64,000 nt of DNA, taken from an uncultured Nitrospirales bacterium (GTDB taxonomy: Bacteria > UBA10199 > JADGCS01). Where the stretch lies: the NCBI GenBank assembly GCA_964609965.1, contig CAZSTS010000003.1:199537-263536 (forward strand), in the 5' to 3' direction. The notes beneath the pieces were generated by a model. That model was not told the DNA's origin. It ran no database searches and saw only the letters and a list, made by a program, of their open reading frames with translations. Both the position numbers and the translations under genes were made by a program. Shown here in pieces: positions 3,770 to 63,605 of this stretch; position 1 is the first letter of the stretch; each line of letters starts with the position of its first letter.

Positions 3770-5020
3770 ATGGCAGATAATTTAAAATCTTTTTATCAGC
3801 ATCTTGATAAAATCAGTGACCGTGGTGTGCGGGCAGGTTTAGAACGCATAGAAAAGGCCATGCAGATATTAGGTCATCCTGATCGAAATTATAAAATCAT
3901 ACATATTGCGGGCACAAATGGAAAAGGAACCGTTTGCAGTTTCATTGCACAATTACTAGCGAAAAGTGGGTATAAGGTTGGTTTAACGTTGTCTCCTCAC
4001 GTAGATGACTACCAAGAGCGAATCCAGGTTTCTCATCAAACAAACTCAAAACTAGGTCTTATTCCAGAGCAGGATCTCATAGATACACATGAGGTTCTTC
4101 TGGACAAACTCCCAGATTCATTAGGGCTCACTTATTTTGAATGGGGTGTTTTGTTGGCATTACAATATTTTTCTGATCAATCAGTGGATTTTGCTGTTTT
4201 AGAAACAGGCTTAGGAGGGCGATGGGATGGCTCAAATGTCATCACTCACTCTGTTCTGTCCGGTATTACAAGTATTGGTCTGGATCACATGGATTACCTG
4301 GGTGAGACAACTCAAAAGATACTAATGGAAAAACTACAGATTGTGAGACCAAAATCAGATTTTCTCTTTTTTTCAACTGGTTCCAAAGAGGGGGATTTAT
4401 TAAATACAGCTAAGAAGTTTTGTGAGGAAAGAAATACAAAGATTCATTTTGCAAAAGAGCATTATCATTGCTTTGATCGGGAGCTTCCAAAAGATAATTT
4501 ACCAACGTGTTTTCGTGAAAATCTTTTATATGCCTTAGCAGCAGGCAAGATTTTGGAGAAACAGGGTTTTAATATTCAATACGATGATTTTTTAGAGGGT
4601 GACGTTTCATTGCCTCCAGCCAGGTTAGAAACCATATCAACTCACCCTTTGATCATTCGAGATGGAGCTCATAATGAACCAGCTCTTCGACTCTTAAAAG
4701 CATATCTTGAAGAAAAGCTTCACAATGATTATGATCTTGTTTTTGGTTGTTTGAAAAGTCGTGATTTTTTAAAGCTGGCTAAGATTGTTTTGTCCTCTCA
4801 TCAAAATTACTGGACTGAATTTGAGGCGGGTCCACGGACAGCATCCAAAGAGGTTTATGATAGGGCCAAAGCATTGTATGGAGGAGAGGTTGTATCCATA
4901 GGAAATCATTTAAAAAACCAGCTTCTTTCACGTAAAAAAAGTAGACCTGTACTCGTGTGCGGTTCGTTCTATTTATGTTCACAGTTTAAGGAAATGTGGG
5001 AAACTGGGTCGAAGGTCTAA
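3770..5020 (+). CDS. folC: Folylpolyglutamate synthase / dihydrofolate synthase (Mur ligase family)
   Basis: P-loop GTNGKGT, Mur ligase middle domain (LETGLGGRWD) and C-terminal DGAHN motif. Confidence 0.85.
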   Translation: MADNLKSFYQHLDKISDRGVRAGLERIEKAMQILGHPDRNYKIIHIAGTNGKGTVCSFIAQLLAKSGYKVGLTLSPHVDDYQERIQVSHQTNSKLGLIPEQDLIDTHEVLLDKLPDSLGLTYFEWGVLLALQYFSDQSVDFAVLETGLGGRWDGSNVITHSVLSGITSIGLDHMDYLGETTQKILMEKLQIVRPKSDFLFFSTGSKEGDLLNTAKKFCEERNTKIHFAKEHYHCFDRELPKDNLPTCFRENLLYALAAGKILEKQGFNIQYDDFLEGDVSLPPARLETISTHPLIIRDGAHNEPALRLLKAYLEEKLHNDYDLVFGCLKSRDFLKLAKIVLSSHQNYWTEFEAGPRTASKEVYDRAKALYGGEVVSIGNHLKNQLLSRKKSRPVLVCGSFYLCSQFKEMWETGSKV

Positions 5021-5066
5021 TGAGGGCTCAAGGCTCAGGGCTCAAGGTATAAGGTCAAAATTGGGG
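5008..5066. repeat. Degenerate tandem heptanucleotide array (gagggct caaggct cagggct caaggta taaggtc ...)
   Basis: Visible 7-nt periodicity directly after the folC stop codon. Confidence 0.7.
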
Positions 5067-5071
5067 GTTAA

Positions 5072-6073
5072 ATGAAAAAGATTATTATATTATTAGTGAT
5101 TAGTTTGCTTATTCCTTTTTCTGCTTATGCAGAAGTTTCACAAACTTTATTAGGTGCGGTTCAGCAGCTTTATAATTCTAATTTTAGCTCAGCTAAGAAA
5201 ACCGCTGATAATCATATTGCGGCTCATCCAGATGATCCAGCCGGGTATCTTGTGAGAGGGATGGCCAATGAGTGGTATCAGTTGGCTCGCAACAAAGGAA
5301 AAACCTTAAACAAGAAGATCATGTCTGATTATCAAAAAGCAAGGCGTCTTGCTGATGCAGCTCTTAAAAAGGATAAAAACAATTTAGACAAAAAAGTCAT
5401 GCTTGGGAATGCCTATGTTTATATCTCTAAAAAACAGATTGATACAGGTCATAAGATGCAGGCTGGTTTTAGTCTCAAACAAGCTAAAAATTTGATGAAT
5501 GAAGTTTTAGCATCAAATCCTGGAAATCAAGACGCTAATTTTGCTGTTGGATTGTTTAATTATTTTGCGGCGAGTGTTCCTCCGGGTTTTCGTTGGCTGG
5601 CCAACTTGGTAGGGTTTAAGGGGAATCGAGCCAAAGGTTTGAGTCATTTACAAAAAGCAGTTTCGACAAGAAGCCTCACACAAAACGATGCTCTTTATAT
5701 GTTGTTTTATATTTATGGTCGAAAAGAAGGGGCTTTTTCAACAGGGTTAAACTATGCTAGTCGTTTGTATAAGTCATTTCCTTCAAACAAAGTTTTTCTG
5801 TTCAATTATGCCGAAATGCTTTTCAGAACAAAAAAGATACAAGAGTCACGAGGCAAGTTTCAAGAGTATTTTGATTACTGTGGCTCACATAAAAACTATT
5901 GCAGTCGCAATTTTCTTTTTCTTTCAAATTATTTCATGGCCTGGAGTTATATGGATGAAAAAGACTACGCAGGGGCTAAGGGGTATTTGATTCAGGCTAA
6001 AAAGCTAGACAAAAAGAAATATAAAAGTAGGACTACTGATATTAAAAAGTGGTCAAAGAAGGCAGGGATATAA
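5072..6073 (+). CDS. Secreted TPR-like repeat protein
   Basis: N-terminal signal peptide (MKKIIILLVISLLIPFSAYA) and helical-repeat-like composition. No catalytic motifs. Confidence 0.5.
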   Translation: MKKIIILLVISLLIPFSAYAEVSQTLLGAVQQLYNSNFSSAKKTADNHIAAHPDDPAGYLVRGMANEWYQLARNKGKTLNKKIMSDYQKARRLADAALKKDKNNLDKKVMLGNAYVYISKKQIDTGHKMQAGFSLKQAKNLMNEVLASNPGNQDANFAVGLFNYFAASVPPGFRWLANLVGFKGNRAKGLSHLQKAVSTRSLTQNDALYMLFYIYGRKEGAFSTGLNYASRLYKSFPSNKVFLFNYAEMLFRTKKIQESRGKFQEYFDYCGSHKNYCSRNFLFLSNYFMAWSYMDEKDYAGAKGYLIQAKKLDKKKYKSRTTDIKKWSKKAGI

Positions 6074-6077
6074 TATT

Positions 6078-6225
6078 CGTACAACACTAGTTTTTCTTCA
6101 TTTGCTGCGTTGGCCGTAACCTTAATTTAAGGCAAGAATTAACAAAAAAGCTAATCTATCATAAAGACTAATTCGGGTTCGTTAGGCAGAACTTACAAAT
6201 TCAGAAAAACTAGTATTGTACGAAA
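6078..6225. mobile_element. MITE-like or structured element of about 148 bp bounded by 19-bp inverted repeats (tcgtacaacactagttttt / aaaaactagtattgtacga)
   Basis: Terminal inverted repeats at 6078-6096 and 6207-6225 with one mismatch. Located between convergent genes. Confidence 0.45.
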
Positions 6226-10822: not shown

Positions 10823-12367
10823 ATGCACGACAAATTAGAACTATTAAAACAATATAATGAGAAAGCGCTACTTGGGGGCGGACAAGCTCGTATAGACAAA
10901 CAACACGCAGCTGGAAAGATGACAGCACGAGAGCGAATAGAATTTTTGCTCGATGAAGGTTCTTTTGTAGAGGTTGATAAATTTGTGGCTCATAATTGCC
11001 AGGATTTTGGTATGGAAAAAAAGAAGGTTTTGGGTGACGGTGTTGTGACAGGGTATGGAACGGTTAACGGGCGTAAAATATTTGTGTTTGCCCAAGATTT
11101 CACTGCCTTTGGGGGCTCATTAGGTGAGGCTTTTGCTCAGAAAATATGCAAGATCATGGATATGGCAAAAAAGACCAATTCTCCTGTTATTGGTTTGAAT
11201 GATTCAGGTGGTGCTCGTATTCAAGAAGGAGTGGTAAGTTTAGCAGGGTATGCCGATATCTTTTTACGAAATGTCATGTCTTCGGGTGTTGTTCCACAAA
11301 TTTCGGTTATTATGGGGCCTTGTGCAGGTGGTGCTGTGTACAGTCCAGCCATGACTGATTTTATCATCATGGTGAAAAAAAGTTCACATATGTTTATCAC
11401 AGGTCCCGAAGTGATAAAAGCGGTTACCCACGAAGATGTGAATAAAGAAGACTTAGGTGGTGCCGAAGCCCATGCTACAAAAAGTGGTGTGGCACATTTT
11501 GTTGCTGAAGATGAGCAAGATGCCTTGAATATCGTAAAAGATGTTTTGAGTTATTCACCTTCGAGCAACTCAGAGAGAACTCCTGTTAGTGCTACTGATG
11601 ACCCCTGGGATCGTGAAGATGAGAGTTTAAATACGGTCGTCCCAAATAATTCTAAAAGGGCTTACGATGTTAAAGACATCATCACAAAGGTTGTTGATGA
11701 TGGAAGATTTTTAGAAGTCCACAAAAGTTACGCTCAAAACATGGTTGTGGGGTTTGCGCGATTTAAAGGGCGTTCTGTTGGTATTGTGGCAAATCAACCT
11801 TCTTTTTTAGCAGGGTGTTTAGATATTAAAGCTTCGGTGAAAGGGGCTCGTTTTGTTCGTTATTGCGACGCTTTTAATATCCCCTTGGTTACCTTTGTTG
11901 ATGTTCCTGGTTTCTTGCCAGGAATCCAACAAGAAGAGGGAGGTATTATTTTTAACGGTGCTAAACTTCTTTATGCTTTTTGTGAGGCGACAGTTCCCAA
12001 AATTACACTCATTCTTCGCAAGGCCTATGGTGGGGCCTATGATGTGATGAGTTCAAAGCATATTAGAGGCGACATCAATTACGCGTATCCTTCTGCTGAG
12101 ATTGCTGTTATGGGGCCTCAAGGGGCTGTGAATATTATTTTTCGTAAAGAGATAGCTGCTGCAGAGGATCCTGCTAAAACAAAAGAAGAACTCGTTGATC
12201 AGTATTGTGAAAAATTTGCTAATCCTTATAAAGCGGCTGAGCTAGGGTACATTGATGAAGTGATTTACCCTCAAGAAACGAGAAAAAAGATTGTACAGGC
12301 ATTAGAAATGCTAAAAGATAAGGTGGATAGTAATCCCAAGAAGAAACATGGGAATATACCTTTGTAG
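10823..12367 (+). CDS. Acyl-CoA carboxylase carboxyltransferase subunit (propionyl-CoA carboxylase beta / methylmalonyl-CoA carboxyltransferase 12S family)
   Basis: 514 aa with strong family resemblance along the whole length ([40 protein letters not shown]). Confidence 0.9.
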
Positions 12368-12399
12368 TGGGTTGTGGATAGTGGATTGTGGGTCGAGAA
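12365..12399. repeat. Tandem heptanucleotide array (tagtggg ttgtgga tagtgga ttgtggg)
   Basis: 7-nt periodicity starting at the stop codon of the carboxyltransferase gene. Confidence 0.65.
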
Positions 12400-16122: not shown

Positions 16123-16165
16123 GGACGTCTAGAGTCTTGCGTCTAGTGTCTAGCGTCTGGCGTGA
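16123..16165. repeat. Tandem heptanucleotide array (gtctaga gtcttgc gtctagt gtctagc gtctggc)
   Basis: 7-nt periodicity immediately after the Crp stop. Confidence 0.7.
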
Positions 16166-20089: not shown

Positions 20090-20319
20090 AATATCTCCTA
20101 ATCCTGTTTTTTAGCCCTGATTTTATGCCCTGTAGCGCTTGTTCTAAACAAGCTGTCACTATTTATATAAGCAAGATGCGTGCCAAAGTGACAAGTTTTA
20201 AGTTACTGTAATTACTTGTTAATTAATGTGGTGATTTGTTAAGAGATGTCTAAAGACCCCAAATTACAGAAAAAGAGGAGAAAATTGTCTGCAGGGTGTT
20301 GAAAATGTATATCTACGCG

Positions 20320-21807: not shown

Positions 21808-21933
21808 GTTTGTATACCCTGTATTTAGCCCCTGAGTAAAACCTGTATCGGGAGAGGGTTTGAGAAGTTGTGTGTTTTTTACAAGGTGCGTAAAAATATG
21901 GTTTTACTACATTTTTGGGATAGTTGGAGGGGG

Positions 21934-23614: not shown

Positions 23615-23637
23615 GGTATTGTTTAATCAGAGATACA

Positions 23638-24669: not shown

Positions 24670-24671
24670 AA

Positions 24672-25465: not shown

Positions 25466-25505
25466 GAGTTTGGAGTGATGAGTAATGAGCGATGAGAAAT
25501 GACAT
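25466..25505. repeat. Tandem heptanucleotide array (ggagttt ggagtga tgagtaa tgagcga tgagaaa tgacata)
   Basis: 7-nt periodicity directly adjoining the palindrome. Confidence 0.6.
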
Positions 25506-33523: not shown

Positions 33524-33560
33524 AATTGTGGGTCGTGTGTTGTGGGTCGTGATTCGATCT
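33524..33560. repeat. Tandem heptanucleotide array (ttgtggg tcgtgtg ttgtggg tcgtgat)
   Basis: Immediately upstream of the corC-like start codon. Confidence 0.6.
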
Positions 33561-37449: not shown

Positions 37450-37453
37450 TGGG

Positions 37454-37488
37454 GCGTGGATCGTGGGTCGTAGGTCGTGGATAGAGGT
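37454..37488. repeat. Tandem heptanucleotide array (gcgtgga tcgtggg tcgtagg tcgtgga tagaggt)
   Basis: Directly after the fadN stop. Runs into a terminator hairpin. Confidence 0.65.
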
Positions 37489-37520
37489 AGGGGCGACCCC
37501 CTGTGGTCGCCCGTTTATTG
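37489..37520 (+). terminator. Rho-independent terminator (gggcgacc-ccctgt-ggtcgccc then gtttattg)
   Basis: 8-bp GC stem followed by a T-rich tract. Confidence 0.6.
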
Positions 37521-40343: not shown

Positions 40344-40462
40344 GGTTACGGTTAGGGTCACGAGGCCCGTTTCGTCTTTCGGTTACGGTTACGTGTTCAT
40401 GCTCTGACGTAACCCATACCGCTAAACGATACGGGCTTCGTAACCGATACACGCTACCTGTA
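40344..40462. repeat. Extended heptad-periodic array rich in ggttacg/cgtaacc units
   Basis: 7-nt periodicity. Partly palindromic (ggttacg vs cgtaacc). Confidence 0.45.
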
Positions 40463-40538: not shown

Positions 40539-41537
40539 ATGAATTTTAATAAGATAAAAAGTAAACTTTCCCTCATTTTTTTCATTATTGGTATTGTCCT
40601 GCTTATTTCCTTAATCAAAAAAGTGGGGTGGCACGAGGTCTTGTCTTATTTTAAAAAATTAGATTACAAGATAATCTATGTTTTTCTCTTTCCCATGACT
40701 TGGTATTCCATTCAAAGTTTTGCCTGGTGGCGGGTTCTCACTGATGATGGTGTTAAGGTTTCTCTAATTCATGTCTTTCTGACAAAAATAACAGGCGAAG
40801 CTGTAAACACGGTTACTCCTTTGAGTTTTTTTGGAGGAGACCCTTATCGCATTTATCTTTTACAGAAAAAGATTTCAAAAACAGATAGTGCCTCATCAGT
40901 GGTCATTGATCGGACAATGTATTTTTTGGGCGTGTTTTTATTGCTTTTCGTTACGTTTTTTGTAGCCTGGTTTAGGTTGCCATTGCCTGGTCATTGGAGG
41001 GTTTTATTCCCAGCCATTATTGTTTTATTTTTTATTATTTTTTTCCTATTAATAAAGATTCAGAAGAAGGGAATGTTTACGTTTATCAGTCGTCTTGTCC
41101 TGAAAACAGGTATTCAAAGAGATCGCATTGAATCGTATTCGGATAAAATAGCTGATTTAGACCAGCAGATAGGGGGGTTTTATAAAAAACATAAGCTGCA
41201 TTTTTTTGAAATCTTGGGTCTTCATTTTTCAGGGCGTATCTTAGGAGCTTTCGAAATCCTCATTATTGCAAATCTTTTGGGGCTCCCAATTGAATTCTAT
41301 CATTGTCTCTACTTGGCTTCACTCACTGTGCTTATCAACGTCATGTTTGTTTTTATTCCAGGGAGCATGGGTGTGATGGAAAGTGGTTATGGAGCTCTTT
41401 TTTATCTTCTCAACATTGCTTGGGAACACGGCGTTGCGCTTCAACTCGTTCGTCGTATCCGTGCCTTTTTCTGGATCGGCATTGGGCTTCTCATCATATT
41501 GTTTTATAAACCAAAGAAAGACAGTTTGGGCGTCTAG
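40539..41537 (+). CDS. UPF0104 / lysylphosphatidylglycerol-synthase-TM-like flippase-family membrane protein
   Basis: The N-terminal KLSLIFFIIGIVLLISLIKKVGWHEV motif is typical of this family. Lies upstream of plsB. Confidence 0.55.
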   Translation: MNFNKIKSKLSLIFFIIGIVLLISLIKKVGWHEVLSYFKKLDYKIIYVFLFPMTWYSIQSFAWWRVLTDDGVKVSLIHVFLTKITGEAVNTVTPLSFFGGDPYRIYLLQKKISKTDSASSVVIDRTMYFLGVFLLLFVTFFVAWFRLPLPGHWRVLFPAIIVLFFIIFFLLIKIQKKGMFTFISRLVLKTGIQRDRIESYSDKIADLDQQIGGFYKKHKLHFFEILGLHFSGRILGAFEILIIANLLGLPIEFYHCLYLASLTVLINVMFVFIPGSMGVMESGYGALFYLLNIAWEHGVALQLVRRIRAFFWIGIGLLIILFYKPKKDSLGV

Positions 41538-41610
41538 AGTCTAGCGTCTAGCGTATTGACCTATCAGTTATCGCCTATCGTGTCTTGTAACCTGCGTCCT
41601 GTAACCCCCT
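41530..41610. repeat. Tandem heptanucleotide array (gtctaga gtctagc gtctagc gtattga cctatca gttatcg cctatcg ...)
   Basis: Spans the stop codon and the whole spacer before plsB. Confidence 0.7.
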
Positions 41611-44445: not shown

Positions 44446-44503
44446 GGGTTGGTCGAAGGTCAAAAGTCTAAGGTCAGGGGAGCTGATGGGAAGGGTTAAG
44501 CTG
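44446..44503. repeat. Tandem heptanucleotide array (ggtcgaa ggtcaaa agtctaa ggtcagg ...)
   Basis: Between convergent plsB and the XRE gene. Confidence 0.65.
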
Positions 44504-44798: not shown

Positions 44799-45051
44799 GG
44801 TCTTTTAGCTCTAAAACGCTTAAGTTATAGTATAGTATAACTTATACTGTGATATAAGTCAAAAAATATCAGAATTATTTTAACTTATTCAAGACACAAA
44901 AAAATCCCCGAAAGGGGATTAATAAAATAGCCCAGGGTTAAGAAAGCCTGAAAGGCTTTTCCTACCCTGGGATTGAAGATAATTTATAACATCTGATTAG
45001 ACATAAAGCTCCAAGTATTCGCTTTATGTTTTCATATTACTATCGCGCTGA

Positions 45052-45076
45052 TCTGGGCTCGTAAAACTCACCCATG
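45052..45076. repeat. Copy of the 25-nt motif CTGGGCTCGTAAA(A/G)CTC(A/G)CCCA(T/C)GC; second copy at 57500-57524
   Basis: 22/25 identity between the two intergenic copies. Confidence 0.5.
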
Positions 45077-45081
45077 CTTAA

Positions 45082-47809: not shown

Positions 47810-49276
47810 CTAAAACAACGGCGTAGCAGCAATCTTAGCCAGTTTGACAAAGGCATCAGGGGCAACGCCTAAGAAGATAACGAGGAAGGCACAGATAGTC
47901 ATGGAAATGCAGGCGGTGAGAGGGATTTCGTTTACAGGGGTTGGTGCATTCTCATCTTTAGCAAAAAACATATACACAGAAGGTCTTAAGTAATAATAAG
48001 CAGAAACAACCGACATGAGAACCGCAACGACCGAAAGAAGAATGTGACCGTTGTGTACGGCCATGGAAATAATGTTGAATTTAGCAGCAAAACCCACTGT
48101 GCCTGGAATCCCAATCAGCGAAATCATGAAAAGCGTGAACACCCCAGCCAAGACAGGATGCTTCTTTGCAAGCCCACGCATGTCAGTGAGCTGATCTGCC
48201 TCAGACTTTTCGCGTATCAATAATGATAAAACAGCAAATGCCCCCAACGTCATGAGGAGATAGCCGAGTAGGTAAAAAAGAACCACATGCGATGAAAAGG
48301 GCATGTACGTGCCTTTCACATACCCTGCAATGATTCCAAACAAAAGAAAACCAGCGTGTGAGATAGATGAATACGCGAGCATCCTCTTTACGTTATCTTG
48401 CACGAGAGCCAAGAGATTTCCAACCAAGAACGTGGCAATAACTAATGTGTTAAGTAAGAAATAAACCTGTTTTAAATCCAAAACATTCAGACTAATGAAA
48501 AGTCGCAATGCAAATCCAAACGCCGCAATCTTCACACCTGTTGCCATAAAACCTGTGACCGGTGCTGGTGCGCCTTCATAAACATCAGGTGCCCAAAAAT
48601 GAAAAGGCACGATGGCTAGTTTGAAAAACACACCTACTAATATGAGGGAAACAGCGATTTTTGGGAGATAGGCAAGGCTTGGTGTTGAAAGCATGGTGCC
48701 AAGCTGGCTGAGCTTGAATGTGCCAAAAGCCCCGTAAAACAGAGCAATACCGTAGAGTAAAATCGCCGAAGCCACACCACCGATGATAAAGTATTTGATG
48801 GCTGCTTCGTTGCTCTTATAGCTTTTCTTGTGTGAGGCCACGAGCACATAAATAGAAAGAGACATGGTCTCAAGGCCGATAAAGTTCACAAAGAGATGGT
48901 CAGAGGCAAACAAGAACACCATGCCTGTGATCGAAAAAAGGACGAGTGAACAAAACTCAGCAGTGAGAGTCTTGTGGATCTTCATGTAGCCCAAGGCATT
49001 GAAGAGTGTGATGATGCCCACAGCAATAACCAAGAACAAAAAGAAGAGAGTAAGGAGGTCAATCACTAATAGGCTTTGCGTGAGGGTGGTTGTAAAAGAA
49101 GCCCATTGTTTAAACCCTGTGAAGAGCGAAGCAAAAAGAGTTAAGATGCCTACGGCATACACAAGAGAGGTCATCTTTTTTGGCCAGATACAGTCGATGA
49201 GTAGGCAAAGAATGGCACCGCCAAATAAGATCCAAATCGCAATTCCTGCAGATAAAATGTTCATTAATTCGGTCAT
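47810..49276 (-). CDS. nuoN: NADH-quinone oxidoreductase subunit N
   Basis: Polytopic antiporter-like subunit. Its position after nuoM. Confidence 0.9.
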   Translation of the reverse strand: MTELMNILSAGIAIWILFGGAILCLLIDCIWPKKMTSLVYAVGILTLFASLFTGFKQWASFTTTLTQSLLVIDLLTLFFLFLVIAVGIITLFNALGYMKIHKTLTAEFCSLVLFSITGMVFLFASDHLFVNFIGLETMSLSIYVLVASHKKSYKSNEAAIKYFIIGGVASAILLYGIALFYGAFGTFKLSQLGTMLSTPSLAYLPKIAVSLILVGVFFKLAIVPFHFWAPDVYEGAPAPVTGFMATGVKIAAFGFALRLFISLNVLDLKQVYFLLNTLVIATFLVGNLLALVQDNVKRMLAYSSISHAGFLLFGIIAGYVKGTYMPFSSHVVLFYLLGYLLMTLGAFAVLSLLIREKSEADQLTDMRGLAKKHPVLAGVFTLFMISLIGIPGTVGFAAKFNIISMAVHNGHILLSVVAVLMSVVSAYYYLRPSVYMFFAKDENAPTPVNEIPLTACISMTICAFLVIFLGVAPDAFVKLAKIAATPLF

Positions 49277-49277
49277 A

Positions 49278-50828
49278 TTATTTTTCCAATGCTACTACGT
49301 CTTCAGCTTTTATCACTTCGTTCGTGTCTTCAAACTTTGCCATTGTTCTCTCATCATCTAATTTAAGTAAAATCGTTTCAGCTGATCTTTCAATCTTGTT
49401 CAAGAAAGGTTTTGGGTAAATGCCAAGCCAGAAGATAAAGATCACAATCACAGCCATCACAAGACATTCTCTCAAGTTGAGATCTTTTCCAAGTCCCTTT
49501 GTTTCTTTTGGTTTTCCAAAAAACACACGTTCAACAAGCCAGAGCATGTAAATAGCTCCTAAAACCACTCCAGTTGCCCCGAGAATCGCGAACACGGGTT
49601 TTGTTTGATAAGTTCCGAGTAAAGTGAGGAATTCGCCAACAAAACCGTTTGTGAGCGGCACACCAATGGATGAGAGGGTCACAATAATAAAAAACACAGT
49701 GTACACAGGCATGGCCTTAGCAAGTCCTGAATAATCTTTGATCATGCGCGTGTGCGTTCTGTCGTAAAGCATTCCAATGAGAAGAAAGAGGGCGCCAGTT
49801 GAAATACCATGATTAAAAATTTGATACAGGCCACCTGTCATCCCTGTTTTATTCAGCGAGAACAAACCAATCATCACAAGTCCCATGTGCGACACAGATG
49901 AATAAGCGATAAGCTTTTTCATATCAGGCTGCACCATGGCAACAAGGGCACCGTAGATGACCCCAATGGCAGCGAGAATCATGAGATAGTTTTGAAGGTA
50001 TTGCATGGCATCAGGAAAAAGAGGAATACCAAAGCGAAAGAAACCATACGTTCCCATTTTAAGCAAAATACCTGCTAGGATTACGGAACCTGCTGTGGGT
50101 GCTTGAACATGAGCGTCGGGCAACCACGTGTGAAAAGGAAACATAGGCACTTTAATCGCAAAGGCTAAAGCCATGGCCAAAAAGACCCAACACTGCGCAC
50201 CAAAAGTGAGTCGGTAATTATAGAGTTCTAAGAGGTTAAAACTCTGTCCTGCTCTAAAATAGAGATACAAAATAGCCACCAGCATGATCACAGAACCAAG
50301 CATGGTGTAGAGAAAGAATTTGAGAGAGGCATAAATACGGTTTTCACCACCCCAGACCCCAATGAGAAAATACATGGGGATGAGCATGATCTCCCAAAAG
50401 ACATAGAATAAGAAGAGATCAAGCGCGCAAAAAACACCAATCATGCCAGTGAGCAGGAACATTAGGCAGAGGAGGTAGAATTTGAGGTTGTTTTGAACAG
50501 AGTTCCAGGTGCCTAAGAGAACAAGGGGCATGGTGATGGTTGTGAGCATGATGAGTAAAAGACTCACACCATCGATTCCCAAAAGATAATGGATGTTCCA
50601 TTGCTCTATCCAAGGGATGTCGATCATGAACTGGTCGATCACACCCGTATTATTAAAGTTAAAGTAGAGTTTAAGTGAGATAAGTACTTCTAAACCAAAG
50701 ACAATAAGAGCTATTGCTTTTAACAGTACAGGACGATTTTTTGGGATAAATGCCAAGACAAGGACCCCCAAGAGAGGGAGAAAGATCAAAAGTGTGAGTA
50801 GGGGCTGATTAACGAGTTGAGTTATCAT
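49278..50828 (-). CDS. nuoM: NADH-quinone oxidoreductase subunit M
   Basis: Antiporter-like complex I subunit motifs. Confidence 0.9.
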   Translation of the reverse strand: MITQLVNQPLLTLLIFLPLLGVLVLAFIPKNRPVLLKAIALIVFGLEVLISLKLYFNFNNTGVIDQFMIDIPWIEQWNIHYLLGIDGVSLLLIMLTTITMPLVLLGTWNSVQNNLKFYLLCLMFLLTGMIGVFCALDLFLFYVFWEIMLIPMYFLIGVWGGENRIYASLKFFLYTMLGSVIMLVAILYLYFRAGQSFNLLELYNYRLTFGAQCWVFLAMALAFAIKVPMFPFHTWLPDAHVQAPTAGSVILAGILLKMGTYGFFRFGIPLFPDAMQYLQNYLMILAAIGVIYGALVAMVQPDMKKLIAYSSVSHMGLVMIGLFSLNKTGMTGGLYQIFNHGISTGALFLLIGMLYDRTHTRMIKDYSGLAKAMPVYTVFFIIVTLSSIGVPLTNGFVGEFLTLLGTYQTKPVFAILGATGVVLGAIYMLWLVERVFFGKPKETKGLGKDLNLRECLVMAVIVIFIFWLGIYPKPFLNKIERSAETILLKLDDERTMAKFEDTNEVIKAEDVVALEK

Positions 50829-50843
50829 ATTCTAATATTTTTC

Positions 50844-52802
50844 TTAGGTTAGTACCAATGTAATCAGAACCAACCAAAGTCCTATTAATAAATAAAAAAC
50901 ATAATGGTTAATATAGCCTGTTTGAATAATCGAGAGCGAACGGGCAAAAAACCGTGAAGCATGGGCCAAACCATTGACCATGAGACCATCGATAATTTTA
51001 GCGTCAAAAATCTTATTTAAGAAACAATCAGAAATCACTTTTATGGGGGTGATGATCAGGGCATTGTAGAGTTCATCAACTTTAAATTTGTTATAAACTA
51101 AATTGTAGAGAAAGCTTAAGCTCTTCTTAATGGGGGCTGTAAAGTTAAGGTTCTTAGTGTAGAGGCGATAGGCCATATAAAGACAGAAAACAGCCCAAGC
51201 AGTCGAGATAAGCATGAGGTGGCCTTCTTGTAAGAACGAACCGTCAATGTGATGAGGTGTGTGTTGTCCTAAAGAGTTAAGCCAATGTCCAAACCAATTA
51301 TGACCAAAGATATGGGGGAGTCCAATAAAACCAACGAGTGACGCAAACACAGCTAATATGATGAGAGGGTAAGTCATCACAGCAGGTGATTCATGGATTT
51401 TTTCTGGGTGTTTGTAGCGAGTCTCACCCATGAATGTATAGACGAAAGCGCGCATCATATAAAAGGCAGTGATGCCAGCAGTGAGCAATCCTAACCAATA
51501 GTAAATGGGGTGCTGGCCATTGGCGTACGTCATGTAAAGGATCTCATCCTTACTAAAAAAACCAGAAAACGGAGGAATGCCAGAGATAGCCAAAGTGAAG
51601 AGCAAAAACGTGATAGCTGTTATTGGCATCTTCTTCCACAGCCCACCCATTTGTCTTATATCTTGTTCATGATGGAGAGAGTTAATCACAGAACCAGCGC
51701 AAAGGAAAAGTCCTGCTTTAAAGAAGGCGTGTGTAAAGACGTGAAAGATGGCTCCCGAAAAAGCACCCACACCTAGGGCCAAGAACATATAACCCAGCTG
51801 ACTTACAGTCGAGTAGGCCAGGACTTTTTTAATATCGTACTGTGTGAGACCAATGAGCGCGGCAATAAAGGCTGTTGAGACTCCCACAATAGCAATGACG
51901 TGCAGGGTAATGGGGGCTAAGACAAAGAGAAAACTCAATTTGGCGATCATGTAAATGCCTGCTGTGACCATTGTGGCAGCGTGGATGAGAGCTGATACAG
52001 GAGTAGGGCCTGCCATGGCATCGGGGAGCCATATATAGAGAGGGATTTGAGCAGACTTTCCTGTGGCGCCAAAGAAAAGACAAAGCGTGATCAGTGTGAT
52101 ACCTGGGCCAAGTAAGTGGGCGTTTTGTGAGAGAGTGGCAATGTCCAAGAAATTCGTACTGGTTGGACTAGCATCGCCTTGGATTCCCACTAAGGTGGCC
52201 ACGATCATGAACATGCCAAGCAAAAAACCAAAATCACCAATGCGGTTCACAATAAAGGCTTTTTTACCTGCCACGGCTTTTTCTTTATCGGTAAACCAAA
52301 AGCCAATGAGAAGATAAGAACAAAGCCCAACGCCTTCCCAACCCACAAAGAGAAAAACAAGAGAGTCGGCCAGAACAAGAATAAGCATGAAAAAGAGAAA
52401 GAGATTTAAGTACGCCATGTATCTGGCATAAGCTTCGTCTTCTTTCATATAACCGATCGAATACACATGGATGAGGAATCCAACTCCAGTAATGAAAAGA
52501 AGCATGATGCTTGTGAGGTGGTCGATACAGAAGCCAAAGGAAAGAGAGAATTCTTCTAAGATCATCCAGTCTAAAAGATTGCTGGCTTTGAGGGAGACAA
52601 GATCAGGGTTTTGAAAAAGGGTTATGAATGCAAAAACTGATATGAGAAAGGCCAGAAAAGTTGAAGAACAGGCAATGAAAGATGTGATCTTAGTGCTAAA
52701 AAAGCCTTTGCCCCGAGATTGTTGAAAGGCAATGATCCCGTTCATGAAAAAACCGAGTAGAGGAAGAAGGGGGATGAGGGTTATGTATAAGCTGTTAGTC
52801 AT
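50844..52802 (-). CDS. nuoL: NADH-quinone oxidoreductase subunit L
   Basis: 652 aa with a long C-terminal extension typical of NuoL. Confidence 0.9.
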   Translation of the reverse strand: MTNSLYITLIPLLPLLGFFMNGIIAFQQSRGKGFFSTKITSFIACSSTFLAFLISVFAFITLFQNPDLVSLKASNLLDWMILEEFSLSFGFCIDHLTSIMLLFITGVGFLIHVYSIGYMKEDEAYARYMAYLNLFLFFMLILVLADSLVFLFVGWEGVGLCSYLLIGFWFTDKEKAVAGKKAFIVNRIGDFGFLLGMFMIVATLVGIQGDASPTSTNFLDIATLSQNAHLLGPGITLITLCLFFGATGKSAQIPLYIWLPDAMAGPTPVSALIHAATMVTAGIYMIAKLSFLFVLAPITLHVIAIVGVSTAFIAALIGLTQYDIKKVLAYSTVSQLGYMFLALGVGAFSGAIFHVFTHAFFKAGLFLCAGSVINSLHHEQDIRQMGGLWKKMPITAITFLLFTLAISGIPPFSGFFSKDEILYMTYANGQHPIYYWLGLLTAGITAFYMMRAFVYTFMGETRYKHPEKIHESPAVMTYPLIILAVFASLVGFIGLPHIFGHNWFGHWLNSLGQHTPHHIDGSFLQEGHLMLISTAWAVFCLYMAYRLYTKNLNFTAPIKKSLSFLYNLVYNKFKVDELYNALIITPIKVISDCFLNKIFDAKIIDGLMVNGLAHASRFFARSLSIIQTGYINHYVFYLLIGLWLVLITLVLT

Positions 52803-52897
52803 AGGTTACAGGTTACAGGCTTCAGGTTACAAGTCACGGGATACGATAATCGATAGGTTTTCAGTCGACCCACAATTCACTATCTACGATCCACTAG
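52803..52897. repeat. Heptanucleotide array filling the entire nuoK-nuoL spacer (gttacag gttacag gcttcag gttacaa gtcacgg gatacga ...)
   Basis: About 13 consecutive 7-nt units. Confidence 0.75.
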
Positions 52898-53206
52898 TCA
52901 TCCTTTCATAGCCTTTAAATCATCTGTTTTAATCGTCTCTCTATTTCTAAAAAGCGCGATCACAATACCAAGTCCAATGGCTGCCTCCACAGCAGCAATA
53001 GCCATCACAAAAATAGAAATCACATGCCCATCTATATTATTATAATAACGCGCGAGGGCAATAAAGGTGAGATTAACTGCATTCATGAGCACTTCGATGC
53101 ACATGAGTACAATAAGAATATTTCTTCTGATAATAATGCCAATAAGACCCAAGCAAAATAACAATGCTGATAAAATGAGGTAATGATGTATCGAAATAGA
53201 AGTCAT
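52898..53206 (-). CDS. nuoK: NADH-quinone oxidoreductase subunit K
   Basis: 102 aa, three TM helices, NuoK-like. Confidence 0.9.
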   Translation of the reverse strand: MTSISIHHYLILSALLFCLGLIGIIIRRNILIVLMCIEVLMNAVNLTFIALARYYNNIDGHVISIFVMAIAAVEAAIGLGIVIALFRNRETIKTDDLKAMKG

Positions 53207-53220
53207 AAAAAAAAGTACCT

Positions 53221-53715
53221 CTACGATTCCTTTCTTCCTAATAAGACAGCCCCCACAATACCCACGAGGAGCAAGACTCCAATGAGTTCAAAGGGGATGA
53301 CATATTTTGTAAACATGAGTTCGCCTATTTGCTCAGCTGTGCCAAACTCTGGTGCTAGTTCTGGAAGGTGTATTAATGGCAATAAGAGAAATTCAATGGC
53401 AAAAAAGGCAAATAACCCAAGGCCTATGAGTATGGCTATGATTCGGCCTAGGTTAAGCTTATCGCGAATATAATCATTCTTTTTGAGATTAAGGAGCATG
53501 ATAACAAAAACAAATAAGACCATGACAGCGCCTGCGTAGACGAGGATTTGTAAAACAGCTACAAAATGAGCGCTGAGTAATGCGTAGAGTGCTGCCAGTG
53601 AGAAGAAGGAAATAATAAGACAAAAGGCGCTTGAGATAGGGTTCTTTTGAAGAATCATTAAGATGACAGTGGAAACCGTGATAAAAGAAAATATGTAGAA
53701 TAGATACACGTCCAT
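53221..53715 (-). CDS. nuoJ: NADH-quinone oxidoreductase subunit J
   Basis: 164 aa, NuoJ-like TM pattern. Confidence 0.85.
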   Translation of the reverse strand: MDVYLFYIFSFITVSTVILMILQKNPISSAFCLIISFFSLAALYALLSAHFVAVLQILVYAGAVMVLFVFVIMLLNLKKNDYIRDKLNLGRIIAILIGLGLFAFFAIEFLLLPLIHLPELAPEFGTAEQIGELMFTKYVIPFELIGVLLLVGIVGAVLLGRKES

Positions 53716-53756
53716 ATAATTTGGTCAAAGGTCTAAGGTCAAAAGTCAAATGTCAG
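53716..53756. repeat. Heptanucleotide array filling the nuoH-nuoJ spacer (ggtcaaa ggtctaa ggtcaaa agtcaaa tgtcaga)
   Basis: Seen directly. It occupies the position where nuoI would normally be. Confidence 0.75.
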
Positions 53757-55006
53757 AGGGCCATTCGTAAGGCCGTAATCACAATATTTACCATAGCCAA
53801 AGGTAATAAAACTTTCCAACCCAGGTTCATGAGTTGGTCATATCTAATTCGGGGTACTGTCCAGCGGATCCAAATAAAAACCCAACACATGAAAAGAGTT
53901 TTTGCTAAAAAGATACCTGCTTGAATGAGTGCTGTGATCCACAGGCCAGCACTTTGGGGTAAAGGTATTTTACCAAAGAAGATGATTGCGATGATGAGGG
54001 CAACACCAACAAAGAGTGCAGGGAGTCCCCAAACGAGAACCTCATAATCACGTTTGTCTCCGTAATGCCCTTTTTTGAATTTAAGACTTAAGTAAATCCC
54101 TACAATGATGGCAATCAAAGCTGTGCCAGATAAAAGGGCGAATAATACTTGGCTCGCGTTGCTGCGCATGAACTCGGTTGAGATAAAGGGAACCTGCCAG
54201 CCACCAAAGAACAAAGTAACGATTAAAGCTGAGGCAATAACCATGTTCACGTATTCAGCCATAAAGAACATAGAGAATTTGAGAGAAGAATATTCCACAT
54301 GATAGCCAGCTACAAGTTCGGATTCGCCTTCTGGGAGGTCAAAGGGGGTTCTGTTAGTTTCGGCAAAGGCTGATATAATAAAGATAATACAGGCTATGGG
54401 ATCAAAAAAGCAGTGCCAGCGCCAAACATTGGCGGTTTGGGTGAGGACCATATCATTTAAGGAGAGAGATCCCGTCCACATGACGATTGAAATGATGGCC
54501 AGTCCCATGGAGAGCTCATAACTGATCATTTGGGCGCTTGATCTTAAGCCCCCCAAAAGAGCGTATTTATTATTAGAGGACCATCCAGCCAACATAATGC
54601 CATATACACCCAGGCTAGTGATCGCTAATATATATAAGACACCGACATTGAGGTTAGCAGCCTGGAAATGGAAGAAATTGCCAGTAAATTCAGCAGGTTC
54701 GGCAAAAGGGATGACCATAAAGGTCACACAGGCCACAAAGAGGGCGATAAAGGGAGCAATTGTATAGTAGAACTTGTTTGCCTGGGAGGGGATGATGTCT
54801 TCCTTAAAGATGAGTTTGACCACATCGGCTATGGGGTGAACAAGGCCTCCAAGACGGACCCCTAATACAGCGGCTCTATTTGGCCCACGACGATCTTGAA
54901 TATAGGCAGATCCTTTGCGCTCTAGCCAGACGAGTAAAGGCACAAATGAGAAAATGATGGCAAAGGGAATGAGGATTTTGAGTAGGACTATGAGTATTTC
55001 AGACAT
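53753..55006 (-). CDS. nuoH: NADH-quinone oxidoreductase subunit H
   Basis: NuoH/ND1 signatures (...GWSSNNKYALLGGLR...). Confidence 0.9.
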   Translation of the reverse strand: MSEILIVLLKILIPFAIIFSFVPLLVWLERKGSAYIQDRRGPNRAAVLGVRLGGLVHPIADVVKLIFKEDIIPSQANKFYYTIAPFIALFVACVTFMVIPFAEPAEFTGNFFHFQAANLNVGVLYILAITSLGVYGIMLAGWSSNNKYALLGGLRSSAQMISYELSMGLAIISIVMWTGSLSLNDMVLTQTANVWRWHCFFDPIACIIFIISAFAETNRTPFDLPEGESELVAGYHVEYSSLKFSMFFMAEYVNMVIASALIVTLFFGGWQVPFISTEFMRSNASQVLFALLSGTALIAIIVGIYLSLKFKKGHYGDKRDYEVLVWGLPALFVGVALIIAIIFFGKIPLPQSAGLWITALIQAGIFLAKTLFMCWVFIWIRWTVPRIRYDQLMNLGWKVLLPLAMVNIVITALRMAL

Positions 55007-55089: not shown

Positions 55090-55185
55090 TAAAAAAGAGG
55101 TCAAAGGTCTAAGGTCGAAAGTCGAAAGTCAAAGGTCATGGGGATTTCTTCTGACATTTGACCTTAGACTTTAGACTTTTGACCA
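55090..55185. repeat. Long imperfect palindrome made of two opposed heptanucleotide arrays (ggtcaaa ggtctaa ggtcgaa agtcgaa agtcaaa ggtcatg ... catttga ccttaga ctttaga cttttga cc)
   Basis: The arms are reverse-complementary over about 35 nt. Located upstream of nuoH. Confidence 0.75.
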
Positions 55186-55186
55186 A

Positions 55187-57112: not shown

Positions 57113-57171
57113 TAGATTATGAAGTTAAATCTAGATTTAACTTGAACAACCCACACCAAAAAGGAGGCGTA

Positions 57172-57387
57172 ATGGCCGTTAAAAAGAAAAAAAAGGTAGT
57201 AAGAAAGAAAAAAGCAACTAAGAAAAAAGCAGCTCCTAAAAAAAGAAAAACAGCAAAAAGAAAACCAGCTAAAAAGAAAAAAGCTGCTAAGAAAAAACCA
57301 GCTAAAAAGAAAAAAGCTGCTAAGAAAAAACCAGCTAAAAAGAAAAAAGCTGCTAAGAAAAAACCAGCAAAAAAGAAAAAGAAATAA
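57172..57387 (+). CDS. Histone H1-like Lys/Ala-rich DNA-binding protein (71 aa)
   Basis: Start set to the ATG at 57172, which has a perfect AGGAGG RBS. Composed of KKKPAKKKKAA repeats, comparable to Hc1/BpH1-type bacterial histone-like proteins. Confidence 0.7.
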   Translation: MAVKKKKKVVRKKKATKKKAAPKKRKTAKRKPAKKKKAAKKKPAKKKKAAKKKPAKKKKAAKKKPAKKKKK

Positions 57388-57456: not shown

Positions 57457-57486
57457 CACAAGGCTCGCGCCTTGTGTTTTGTTTTA
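57455..57486 (+). terminator. Second tandem terminator hairpin (cacaaggc-tcgc-gccttgtg then ttttgtttt)
   Basis: 8-bp stem plus a T-tract. Confidence 0.65.
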
Positions 57487-57499
57487 ACTAACGCGCTTA

Positions 57500-57524
57500 C
57501 CTGGGCTCGTAAAGCTCGCCCACG
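57500..57524. repeat. Copy of the 25-nt motif CTGGGCTCGTAAAGCTCGCCCACGC (see 45052-45076)
   Basis: Sequence identity to the other copy. Confidence 0.5.
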
Positions 57525-57594
57525 CTTTTTTTTTACCCTACAATATGAGTAAGGCCTTAAATTAGTTATTGCTCCTGTCTCCACTTGTCGTTAT

Positions 57595-62003: not shown

Positions 62004-62204
62004 ATCTTTCTCCTTTTATTATGTTCATTAAGTGTACATGCAAATTGCCTGCCATAAGGCCAATAAAATTATATACAATTGAAATAATTGATGTTTTATC
62101 TGACTTGATATTAACACGCAGACCATTCAATCCCGTTTAAATACATTTAAATGAGATTCTCTGTGTACATAATCGGTTAAATGTGTATTCGAGAGAGAAG
62201 GAAA

Positions 62205-63605
62205 TTAGAGGCTATTCATGGCTATTTTTGAGCTCAGAACAGCTGATTCAATCGTGGGCGGGAGGTTTGTTTGGGTCCAATCACCGACGATACTGAAATT
62301 CTCGAGGACCTTTTGCCTTGGTCTGATCTCATCAATTTCAGGACTACAGTTTATGGTCGCATCTCTTTCAATATTAACAAGTGAATGTGTGAGTTTTGCT
62401 TCTTTCACTTTCGGATAAATTCTTTCCAGGTCCTTCATGGCAAGGGCAACAATTTCTTCTTTGCTTTTATCTAGAAAATCATAGGCGCCACTGATGGTGC
62501 CTACTACGTGCCTCGTGCTTCGTTCTTCGTTCCTCGTGCTTCGTCCCTCGTCGGACTTATTAAAGAACCAGTGGACTGTTGTAGAGGAGCTGCCGATAAA
62601 GAAATCTGTCATCACAGGACGGTCAAAGAAAAGGTTTAAGGAAACAATAGGAGAGCCTGTGAGTTGTTCGAGATTTTTAAAGGATTCATCTGTGTCGACA
62701 ATGGTTCGAGGGAGGGCATTCAAGAGAGCTCTCGGTGGCAAAGCAGATATATAGAGAGACGCCTTGAGTTCTGTGTTGTCCGCAAGATGAAAGGCCTGCA
62801 CTTTGTTGTCTAAAATACGGATTTCTTTAAGCCCAAGGTCTGTAATGATTTTATGACCACGGAGTTCAAGATACTTTCTTATAGGGTTGGCAAAAACATT
62901 TGAGAGACCTTCTTTTGGAAAGATCAAAAAACCATCTCTTTTCTGGGCAAAAAAACTGTTTATGAGGACTTGAACCAAAGAATTGGCTGAGGCAGCTTCC
63001 ACGCTGTTATTCAGGGTGGCCATTGTGAATGGTTCCCAAAAGCTGTTTATGGCTTTCTCCCCTTGCGCGTGTTTTTGGAGCCATTTTGACACTGTGAGGT
63101 TTAGGGGAGGATCTGATTTACCTGTATTAATTTTTTTGAGTTCTCGAGAAAGACCTATCAATCCAAATTTTTCTTTTATACTCATGCCGCCAAAAAACAA
63201 AATTGCTAAAGCGAGATTTAAAGGAGCGGGTAATAATCTCAGACAGAAAACATTTCTTTTAAACTTTGAGTCTAATAAAGGGACGATAGTTGGGATTTGG
63301 TATTTGATCTTGTGTTTTGCTCCTACGCGTTCAAGAAGCTTAATGGTTTCGTGGTAAGCTCCGATCATGAGGTGTTGTCCATTGTCGATTGTCTTCCCAG
63401 TTTTTTTATCTGTAAATGAGTATGTTCTTCCGCCCAAAATAGATTTTCGTTCAATCAATGTTACTTTGTAACCCAATTCATCGAGCATGACAGCTGCAGC
63501 AAGGCCTGCCAGACCTCCTCCAGCAATGAGGGCAGAGTTAGGGTGTGCCTCGTGGATCGTGCCTCGTTCTTCGTGGGGTGAGGGTTGTGGATCGGAGTGT
63601 TGCAT
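62205..63605 (-). CDS. FAD-dependent amine-oxidase/phytoene-desaturase family oxidoreductase (HpnE-like squalene-associated desaturase) carrying two repeat-derived insertions
   Basis: GxGxxG (IAGGGLAGLAAA). Family similarity and its position next to a squalene/phytoene synthase gene. Confidence 0.75.
   Translation of the reverse strand: MQHSDPQPSPHEERGTIHEAHPNSALIAGGGLAGLAAAVMLDELGYKVTLIERKSILGGRTYSFTDKKTGKTIDNGQHLMIGAYHETIKLLERVGAKHKIKYQIPTIVPLLDSKFKRNVFCLRLLPAPLNLALAILFFGGMSIKEKFGLIGLSRELKKINTGKSDPPLNLTVSKWLQKHAQGEKAINSFWEPFTMATLNNSVEAASANSLVQVLINSFFAQKRDGFLIFPKEGLSNVFANPIRKYLELRGHKIITDLGLKEIRILDNKVQAFHLADNTELKASLYISALPPRALLNALPRTIVDTDESFKNLEQLTGSPIVSLNLFFDRPVMTDFFIGSSSTTVHWFFNKSDEGRSTRNEERSTRHVVGTISGAYDFLDKSKEEIVALAMKDLERIYPKVKEAKLTHSLVNIERDATINCSPEIDEIRPRQKVLENFSIVGDWTQTNLPPTIESAVLSSKIAMNSL
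62508..62556. repeat. Heptanucleotide array (gtgcctc gtgcttc gttcttc gttcctc gtgcttc gtccctc gtcggac) inside the hpnE-like CDS
   Basis: 7 in-frame units that encode SDEGRSTRNEERSTRH. Confidence 0.7.
63545..63602. repeat. Heptanucleotide array (gtgcctc gtggatc gtgcctc gttcttc gtggggt gagggtt gtggatc) encoding the N-terminal 20 aa of the hpnE-like ORF
   Basis: The annotated N-terminus MQHSDPQPSPHEERGTIHEAH maps onto the repeat. Confidence 0.65.

Follow-up and report, generated by a model that had tools for sequence, protein, structure and literature searches.

Short tandem arrays of degenerate 7 nt units, most of them lying between genes, are a frequent feature of a 64,000 nt stretch of DNA (contig CAZSTS010000003.1, positions 199,537 to 263,536 of the forward strand; hereafter 'the window') from an uncultured Nitrospirales bacterium. 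The initial annotation, made from the letters of the sequence, listed 14 such loci and suggested that they constitute a genome-specific repeat class, potentially acting as slipped-strand or phase-variable spacers, protein-binding arrays or mobile micro-elements. The observation of heptanucleotide arrays at gene boundaries is confirmed: they are a real feature of a known class of repeat, here found in a new uncultured lineage. The arrays have the features of heptanucleotide simple-sequence repeats like the short tandemly repeated repetitive (STRR) sequences, and lack those of contingency loci and of repetitive extragenic palindromic (REP) sequences or MITEs (miniature inverted-repeat transposable elements). 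It is judged about an even chance that they are STRR-like repeats that were born in place and are subject to fast turnover.

Heptanucleotide periodicity at gene boundaries

Period-7 arrays were called by Tandem Repeats Finder, run on the whole window, at 12 of the 14 listed loci. When a lag-7 detector was applied at a strict setting (at least 16 matches in 21 positions), 11 segments were identified, against 0.52 expected from shuffles that keep the local composition; every other period between 4 and 12 yielded from zero to two segments. Relaxing the threshold to 15/21 matches gave 15 segments (1.5 expected), 14 of them at listed loci and the last in a T-rich stretch within a gene, hence the original list of loci is essentially complete. 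The autocorrelation analysis proposed by the initial annotation likewise revealed an excess over shuffled intergenic sequence: in the 6.5 kb of intergenic DNA, lag 7 (z = 5.1) and lag 14 (z = 3.3) stand out, all other lags between 3 and 22 having |z| < 2, and coding sequence exhibits a period of three only.

Thirteen of the 14 loci are true arrays, with lag-7 matches of at least 15/21 and comprised of four to seven degenerate units, instead of the 5 to 17 units originally counted. They thereby possess the three or more head-to-tail 7 nt copies, and the excess specific to period 7, that typify STRR-like repeats. Units within an array match one another at 70-88% of positions, rather than being near-perfect in the manner of phase-variable contingency repeats. 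The remaining locus, 40344-40462, was rejected as a tandem array, being an imperfect palindrome on the basis of its lag-7 score and its folding.

The location of the arrays is mainly non-coding. Spacers represent 10% of the window and harbour 12 of the 14 loci; the other two lie in hpnE, that at 62508-62556 inside the reading frame, in a loop of variable length, and that at 63545-63602 in the 5' end of the gene, corresponding to the N-terminal end of the protein. Of the 40 spacers of at least 25 nt, 12 (around 30%) contain an array; these are 8 of the 26 co-directional spacers, 2 of the 6 convergent and 2 of the 8 divergent ones. When 13 arrays are classified by context, eight are co-directional, two convergent, two divergent and one in a mid-gene loop, with 63545-63602 additionally found at a gene's 5' end; this last is the sole array in such a position, whereas contingency repeats are characterised by location in promoter spacers or early coding sequence. 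As first described, arrays often begin at a stop codon or a few nucleotides away from one, or finish immediately ahead of a start codon. Those at 16123, 44446, 52896 and 55186 start 0-3 nt past a stop codon, and the start codons of nuoL and nuoJ directly follow arrays, with no intervening Shine-Dalgarno sequence.

Turnover between species and probable birth in place

The same nuo spacers were found to hold arrays in three related lineages: the window and two sister lineages, represented by contigs L001/L091 and contig L090, the NuoH proteins of which share 78% identity with that of the window and 92% with one another. The units in corresponding spacers are unrelated, have a period of either 7 or 8, are arranged singly or as inverted pairs, and differ in orientation. 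Arrays are few or absent in more distant relatives. A single AAGTACT (..CTAAGTACT-CTTTATATG..) occurs in the nuoJ-nuoK spacer of L090; in that spacer, L001 has AAGTACT and five degenerate copies between flanks conserved with L090, and the window is devoid of an array. The L001 array is a direct case of growth from a resident heptamer; in this one informative pair, the filled and empty sites do not differ by a foreign insertion of the kind left by REP elements or MITEs. Similarly, the HpnE loop that contains a 7 nt array in the window holds an 8 nt array, GCCCCCTC repeated four times (about 4145-4180), in contig L185, which encodes an HpnE 59% identical to that of the window. Birth in place is favoured because of the AAGTACT site, the unrelated arrays in orthologous nuo spacers, and these 7 and 8 nt arrays within one HpnE loop. 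The single-copy and expanded nuoJ-nuoK sites and the HpnE arrays are also compatible with the slipped-strand origin entertained by the initial annotation.

Period-8 arrays in L090 and L185 occupy the same niches as heptamers. L090 has a perfect (CCCATCGA)x6 array of period 8 on the 3' side of the DUF507 stop codon (490-540) and an inverted pair of 8 nt arrays between nuoH and nuoJ (1895-1955).

Stability between strains

Twenty-four contigs from other samples, carrying the same genes at 99.8-100% identity and jointly covering 9 of the 14 loci, were available for comparison. No array differed in any of 59 array-by-contig comparisons. As the arrays are identical in 24 independently assembled contigs, they are not assembly artefacts. 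The length differences observed were instead in a coding repeat rich in lysine near 57273, where 33 nt are gained or lost, and, in one contig (L084), a stretch of N and a 3 nt difference near 47166-47173. A change in unit number between close strains, as would be seen at contingency loci, was thus not detected, with power limited by strains at least 99.8% identical. Phase variation, as the initial annotation had suggested, is not supported: there is no sign of it, in strains too similar to provide a strong test.

Longer coding repeats were noticed in both of the genes concerned. An 18 nt (six-codon) tandem repeat of approximately five copies is found at 46762-46900, in the open reading frame (ORF) 46730-47236 that also contains the N stretch of L084, and 57142-57387 is a small lysine- and alanine-rich ORF comprised of 33 nt (11-codon) repeats (57204-57380), bearing a resemblance to histone H1-like proteins.

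Distribution in unrelated bacteria

The repeat class extends far beyond this genome. In a survey of 160 unrelated loci around nuoH homologues from many phyla, totalling 2.0 Mb, 93 arrays of period 7 were found against 4.3 expected, an excess on a par with those of the coding periods 6, 9 and 12. Period 8 was also enriched (32 against 5.3 expected), with periods 5, 10 and 11 at background levels. The description 'genome-specific' is not supported by these counts or by the presence of such repeats in the literature (PMC4679880, PMC4692102): unit sequences are lineage-specific, yet the class itself is widespread. At 0.17 arrays per kb, the window is roughly four times as dense in them as the survey loci are on average.

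Again, the arrays are disproportionately non-coding, with 61 of the 93 in the approximately 9% of sequence outside genes. By context, 51 were co-directional, 12 convergent and 3 divergent, compared with around 38, 13 and 15 predicted from spacer length, in a sample that consists entirely of nuo operon neighbourhoods and is hence biased towards co-directional spacers; depletion from divergent spacers was seen in the survey, but not in the window alone. A reverse-complement partner array lay within 250 nt of 38 of 88 non-redundant survey arrays (43%), whereas controls with reversed, complemented or direct partners gave from zero to two. These inverted pairs have folding z scores between -3 and -8, and often take up a spacer entirely, from the stop codon through to the start codon.

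Among the contigs of viral class, L218, L244, L254 and L252 carry long perfect GGTCNAA-type arrays (three to four consecutive matches to a 21 nt pattern). Pattern scans for the F1 and F2 units defined below both match viral contigs, with the F1 count near chance by a rough estimate.

Unit families and array loci

Across 74 kb, comprising the window and a 10 kb upstream extension, there are four families of unit, each represented at two to six loci. These are F1, (A/G)GTC(A/T/G)AA (GGTCNAA), at 5008, 44446, 53720, 55095 and 55148; F2, (N)GTCT(N)G (GTCTAGN), at 16123 and 41528; F3, T(N)GT(NNN), at 12365, 33524, 37450, 52865, 62502 and 63545; and GTAACCT, at 52803 and within the upstream extension. 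Units of F2 type (GTCTAGC) are also found in the sister species L001, at other spacers than in the window. Within a family, three to five of the seven columns are invariant across loci (T.GT in the six F3 arrays; GTC in F1 and F2). Some distant arrays are 88-90% identical in their entirety over 27-37 nt, odd terminal units and the order of variant units included; the similar pairs are 53721-53757 and 55150-55186, 12365-12396 and 52865-52896, and 16123-16149 and 41528-41554. No shared flanks, defined ends, terminal inverted repeats or target duplications were evident beyond the periodic part when the F1, F2 and F3 loci were aligned. F1 arrays are found both with and against the direction of transcription, and the sense-strand base composition of the arrays is balanced. 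Substitutions are weakly concentrated by column (143 variable columns, compared with 172 expected from a simulation conditioned on detection; combined P about 0.05), and 37 columns have three or more states against 31 expected in the same simulation. The one or two hypervariable columns apparent by eye in many arrays were not relied upon, the effect in the simulation being so weak.

The loci are listed below, with the units as read on the strand given. Two listed loci each proved to be a double: 52803-52897 consists of two different arrays, and 55090-55185 of two arrays in opposite orientation.

5008..5059, + strand: F1 array GTCGAAG GTCTAAT, GGCTCAA (three copies), GGTATAA, GGTCAAA, in sense orientation; overlaps the folC stop codon (TAA 5018-5020) and occupies the 51 nt spacer to the ATG at 5072.
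12365..12396, + strand: F3 array TAGTGGG TTGTGGA TAGTGGA TTGTGGG TCGA (Tandem Repeats Finder); the TAG with which it opens terminates a carboxyltransferase gene (10823-12367), and an AGGAG ribosome-binding site, then an ATG at 12414, lie 3' of it.
16123..16165, + strand: F2 array of six (N)GTCT(N)G units (Tandem Repeats Finder and lag-7); begins immediately 3' of the stop codon of a Crp/Fnr gene, in a 67 nt convergent spacer.
25466..25505, - strand: array GAGTGAT GAGTAAT GAGCGAT GAGAAAT, here as read on the + strand (Tandem Repeats Finder and lag-7); separates two co-directional minus-strand genes and adjoins a small hairpin, CGTGTCC-TTGG-GGACACG.
33524..33560, + strand: F3-type array GTGGGTC GTGTGTT GTGGGTC GTGATTC, weaker (15/21 matches); adjoins the start codon of a minus-strand CNNM gene, in a divergent spacer.
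37450..37488, + strand: F3-type array GTGGATC GTGGGTC GTAGGTC GTGGATA (Tandem Repeats Finder and lag-7); lies between the stop codon of a fadB-like gene (37447-37449) and the next feature, and therefore in a 3' untranslated region.
37491..37512, + strand: terminator-like hairpin GGGCGACC-CCCTGT-GGTCGCCC with a T-rich tail, the best of that region.
40344..40462, no strand: imperfect 119 nt palindrome in a divergent spacer (folding z = -5.9), with a lag-7 match of 0.39, 11 matches in its best 21 nt stretch, and short heptamer runs only (CGGTTA CGGTTAC).
41528..41610, + strand: F2 array GCGTCTA GAGTCTA GCGTCTA GCGTATT, then three looser xxxCTAT and two TGTAACC units (Tandem Repeats Finder); the TAG at 41535-41537 within it is the stop codon of an HpnL-like gene, and folding detected no structure in it (z = +0.6).
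44446..44480, + strand: F1 array GTTGGTC GAAGGTC AAAAGTC TAAGGTC AGGGG, weaker (15/21 matches); begins 2 nt past the plsB stop codon, in a 50 nt convergent spacer.
52803..52840, - strand: five GTAACCT units, the minus strand being sense (Tandem Repeats Finder); abuts the nuoL ATG (52802), which has no Shine-Dalgarno sequence.
52865..52897, - strand: F3 array TAGTGGATCGTAGATAGTGAATTGTGGGTCGA, the minus strand being sense (family alignment); begins 1 nt past the nuoK stop codon and is an 88% match, as the reverse complement on the + strand, to 12365-12396. The whole nuoK-nuoL spacer, which holds this array and the unrelated preceding one, is less structured than its shuffles (z = +2.7).
53720..53757, + strand: F1 array GGTCAAA GGTCTAA GGTCAAA AGTCAAA TGTCAGA (Tandem Repeats Finder); occupies the 37 nt nuoH-nuoJ spacer antisense to the operon, its end overlapping the nuoH stop codon.
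55095..55143, + strand: F1 array of six units, the distal hairpin arm in the spacer upstream of nuoH.
55148..55186, - strand: F1 array of five units, with sense strand TTGGTCAAAAGTCTAAAGTC..., the inverted partner of 55095-55143; begins immediately 3' of the stop codon of the DUF507 gene. The two pair with a minimum free energy of -32.6 kcal/mol (z = -4.3) and one unit bulged out.
62502..62554, - strand: six to seven GTGCCTC/GTGCTTC/GTTCTTC units in the hpnE reading frame (Tandem Repeats Finder), encoding ..DEGRSTRNEERSTRH.. in an HpnE loop of variable length among homologues.
63545..63602, - strand: looser array GTGCCTC GTGGATC GTGCCTC GTTCTTC ... (Tandem Repeats Finder) spanning the first 19 or so codons of the hpnE ORF; it would be either an N-terminal extension absent from homologues or, if the true start is downstream, a 5' leader.

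Relationship to known repeats

Units of the cyanobacterial STRR of Calothrix and Anabaena include CCCCAGT, TTGGTCA and CAACAGT. As in the window, several heptamer families occur per genome, both intergenically and inside operons; however, the organism here is not a cyanobacterium, judging by its gene content, and although F1 arrays begin with TTGGTCA their unit is (A/G)GTC(A/T/G)AA. The REP elements and associated bacterial interspersed mosaic elements of enterobacteria share with the window arrays a preference for intercistronic spacers and 3' ends, and the window arrays, when paired, also form hairpins. By contrast, REP elements are fixed imperfect palindromes of around 35 nt spread by REP-associated tyrosine transposases (RAYT), whereas the window arrays lack a fixed sequence, are for the most part unpaired, and are not accompanied by a nearby transposase gene.

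The closest parallels are among other heptamers. According to summaries in PMC4679880 and PMC4692102, Mrazek et al. (2007) reported that heptanucleotide units are the most abundant class of long simple-sequence repeat in most prokaryotic genomes, and suggested polymerase slippage as the cause of this excess (summarised in PMC4679880). As far as these summaries describe them, those repeats are similarly head-to-tail 7 nt units, far commoner than other non-triplet lengths and mainly intergenic, but are near-perfect and drawn from cultured genomes, while the window arrays contain four to seven degenerate units of several families in an uncultured lineage. In Xanthomonas, about three quarters of GGGAATC arrays form inverted pairs; two species have them at conserved positions but with differing lengths, and there is transcription of both strands (Rehm et al. 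2015, PMC4692102). Nostoc has related arrays of GGGGA(C/T)T (PMC4692102). These resemble the window arrays in being intergenic, at many loci and often paired in opposite orientation, able to form stem-loops; they differ in having one dominant, G-quadruplex-capable unit with a G-tract, whereas the window has at least four families lacking G-tracts and one clear inverted pair. Marine Beggiatoaceae harbour TAACTGA arrays just upstream of start codons, for which S1, cold-shock or CsrA proteins are candidate readers (MacGregor 2015, PMC4679880). Likewise short (two to six copies), near start codons where they apparently replace the Shine-Dalgarno sequence, and present in essential operons, these are nonetheless a single exact unit in about 170 sets, unlike the degenerate, multi-family arrays of the window, which are more often tied to an upstream stop codon.

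Origin and possible functions of the arrays

If the arrays are born in place, a resident string of 7 nt, or sometimes 8 nt, would be duplicated head-to-tail by replication slippage or template switching. Copies would then drift apart and whole arrays be replaced quickly on an evolutionary scale, surviving only where a change in length is harmless: in short stop-to-start spacers, in 3' untranslated regions and, with the net length in frame, in permissive parts of proteins. Acquisition of a nearby inverted copy, probably by strand switching, would convert the spacer into a long imperfect hairpin. Riding on operon transcripts, the arrays would have at most a generic effect, as a structure-free spacer or a hairpin, and not that of a tuned switch. 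Slippage is favoured because period 7 is specifically enriched and the arrays abut or overlap stop codons and occupy whole spacers, because the loci of a family share nothing past the periodic part and have a balanced sense-strand composition, and because hairpins are no more stable as sense than as antisense RNA and the same period-7 excess recurs in the survey. The periodicity and placement of the arrays, their constancy among strains, their fast replacement between species and the one pair of single-copy and expanded sites are established by observation; the slippage mechanism, the cause of the preference for 7 nt and the largely neutral status of the arrays are what we infer.

Several observations weigh against birth in place as a full account. 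The recurrence of a few unit families at two to six loci is not predicted by purely local slippage. Some distant arrays are highly identical, variant-unit order included, and substitutions are somewhat concentrated in few columns. Recent as it is, the L001 expansion has already diverged by around 23% between units, so that copies are either born imperfect or mutating fast. The nuoK-nuoL spacer retains an array in all three lineages, which could reflect selection. No strain has any change in copy number, although power is low, with no more than 10 substitutions per 20 kb. Family recurrence, persistence in nuo spacers and the frequency of inverted pairs across phyla are unexplained by slippage alone.

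The alternative that fares best, if still improbable, gives the arrays a cis-acting role as RNA within operon transcripts. Inverted pairs would behave like REP hairpins, protecting upstream mRNA, attenuating read-through or coupling translation from stop to start, and single arrays would serve as structure-free landing pads for ribosomes in the absence of a Shine-Dalgarno sequence. Their position within operons and 3' untranslated regions, their scarcity in the divergent promoter spacers of the survey, the strong folding of inverted pairs that often run exactly from stop to start codon, the unstructured nuoK-nuoL spacer, the lack of Shine-Dalgarno sequences before nuoL and nuoJ, and the retention of arrays in the same nuo spacers by three lineages are all consistent with such a role, and a translational function has been suggested for the Beggiatoa TAACTGA repeats (PMC4679880). 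However, the G.U wobble pairs expected to stabilise functional sense RNA hairpins left no signature: the antisense strand was the more stable in 9 of 12 co-directional hairpins (P = 0.15), and this asymmetry was rejected as a sign of function. F1 arrays run both with and against transcription, and arrays in the window are not depleted from divergent spacers. A Shine-Dalgarno sequence precedes 1 of 5 genes that follow arrays, compared with 24 of 58 genes overall, a contrast that is uninformative because so few genes have a clear one. A crude ORF caller accounts in part for the start-codon adjacency seen in the survey, and the occurrence of stop triplets in 31 of 44 sense-strand units, against 19 expected, was likewise rejected as evidence because stop-free arrays get absorbed into ORFs by such a gene caller. 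No Rfam 15 family reached its gathering threshold anywhere in the window.

Protein binding, with one unit per 7 nt recognised on single-stranded RNA or DNA by a cold-shock-domain protein, or on double-stranded DNA by an omega-type ribbon-helix-helix protein, is considered unlikely. Omega repressors bind arrays of 7 bp heptads, and the preferred heptamer of CspB starts with GTCTTT. Invariant columns within families, the weak concentration of substitutions and the presence of common families at different loci in different species would suit a recognition site, and CspB is described in PMC4679880 as binding heptamer repeats with one protein per heptamer. Yet at least four unrelated families coexist in 64 kb, units change completely between species at 92% NuoH identity, orientation relative to transcription is mixed, and the genes next to the arrays of the window include none for a candidate binding protein. 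Different lineages have no convincing k-mer core in common; the best candidate across phyla, GGTCA (6 loci against 1.5 expected), was unconvincing after multiple testing.

It is very unlikely that the arrays are small mobile or gene-converting elements of the REP, MITE or small-dispersed-repeat type, inserting at gene ends and bringing stop codons in all three frames; the 'mobile micro-element' reading of the initial annotation is not supported. Such elements would account for the near-identical distant arrays with their odd terminal units, for sense-oriented copies that start just past a stop codon or supply one, and for a niche the same as that of REP elements. However, with three to five invariant columns, 70-85% identity is expected within a family in any case, so the excess similarity is modest; flanks, terminal inverted repeats and target duplications in common are lacking; the filled L001 site is an expansion of resident sequence; and no transposase or RAYT gene is found in the window or its 10 kb upstream extension. 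Least credible of all are contingency loci switching neighbouring genes on and off through frequent changes in unit number: a unit length not divisible by three is the classical substrate for such a switch, and one array falls within a reading frame and another at the 5' end of a gene, but the units are degenerate, most arrays lie between cistrons rather than in promoters or early coding sequence, and not one changed among strains in which a 33 nt coding repeat varied by one unit.

Genomic setting

The window has a G+C content of about 39% and encodes sigma-54 activators, FolC, MurJ, a NuoHJKLMN cluster, PlsB, a FadB-like protein and hopanoid genes. The closest NuoH, 78% identical, is from the uncultured metagenome-assembled genome (MAG) isolate Modern_marine.mb.68, with other relatives at around 60% identity in MAGs labelled Deltaproteobacteria, Nitrospirales or UBA10199. 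The cluster at 47810-55006 comprises nuoH-J-K-L-M-N only, nuoI being missing between H and J and nuoA-G from the vicinity; DUF507 and DAHP synthase genes lie upstream of it, in the same order in the sister lineages. Around ten minus-strand genes at 19124-27539 have no Pfam match on record, two of which (26578-27015 and 27084-27539) are paralogues sharing a 57 nt stretch that is 84% identical. In the hpnE relative, a DDE transposase gene upstream of the squalene synthase genes in contig L186 (157-1665) is absent from L187, a strain-level insertion polymorphism unrelated to the arrays.

Two other repeats were observed. Non-coding 60 nt stretches at 45020-45079 and 57468-57527 are 80% identical, having the block CTGGGCTCGTAAA(A/G)CTC(A/G)CCCA(T/C)GCTT in common, and possibly represent a small RNA or regulatory site; no Rfam threshold was reached by the first in a scan of 44800-45100, the second being covered by the whole-window scan only. 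An inverted repeat with 29 nt arms, 90% complementary and 91 nt apart (6076-6104 and 6196-6224), lies in the 387 nt convergent spacer 3' of the gene at 5072-6073 and is without heptamer periodicity.

Implications

The window adds an uncultured lineage to those with an excess of 7 nt repeats, a phenomenon recognised since 2007 for which there is no accepted cause or function. Contigs from related organisms provide both a clean example of birth from a resident heptamer and complete turnover of arrays between the sister lineages, at 92% NuoH identity. In practical terms, the arrays blur the starts of genes, and proteins acquire short low-complexity insertions from them, hpnE being an example. A more speculative proposal, and a doubtful one, is that heptamer arrays, particularly inverted pairs by which an entire stop-to-start spacer becomes a long hairpin with periodic mismatches, make up a class of functional intercistronic elements in many phyla, kept by a conserved factor or process with a step of 7 nt; if so, this would explain both the long-noted excess of heptanucleotides and their persistence in nuo spacers despite replacement of the sequence. 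The survey extends the phenomenon, together with its hairpin pairing, to many uncultured phyla, such that the origin and function of these arrays are testable with existing metagenomes and metatranscriptomes.

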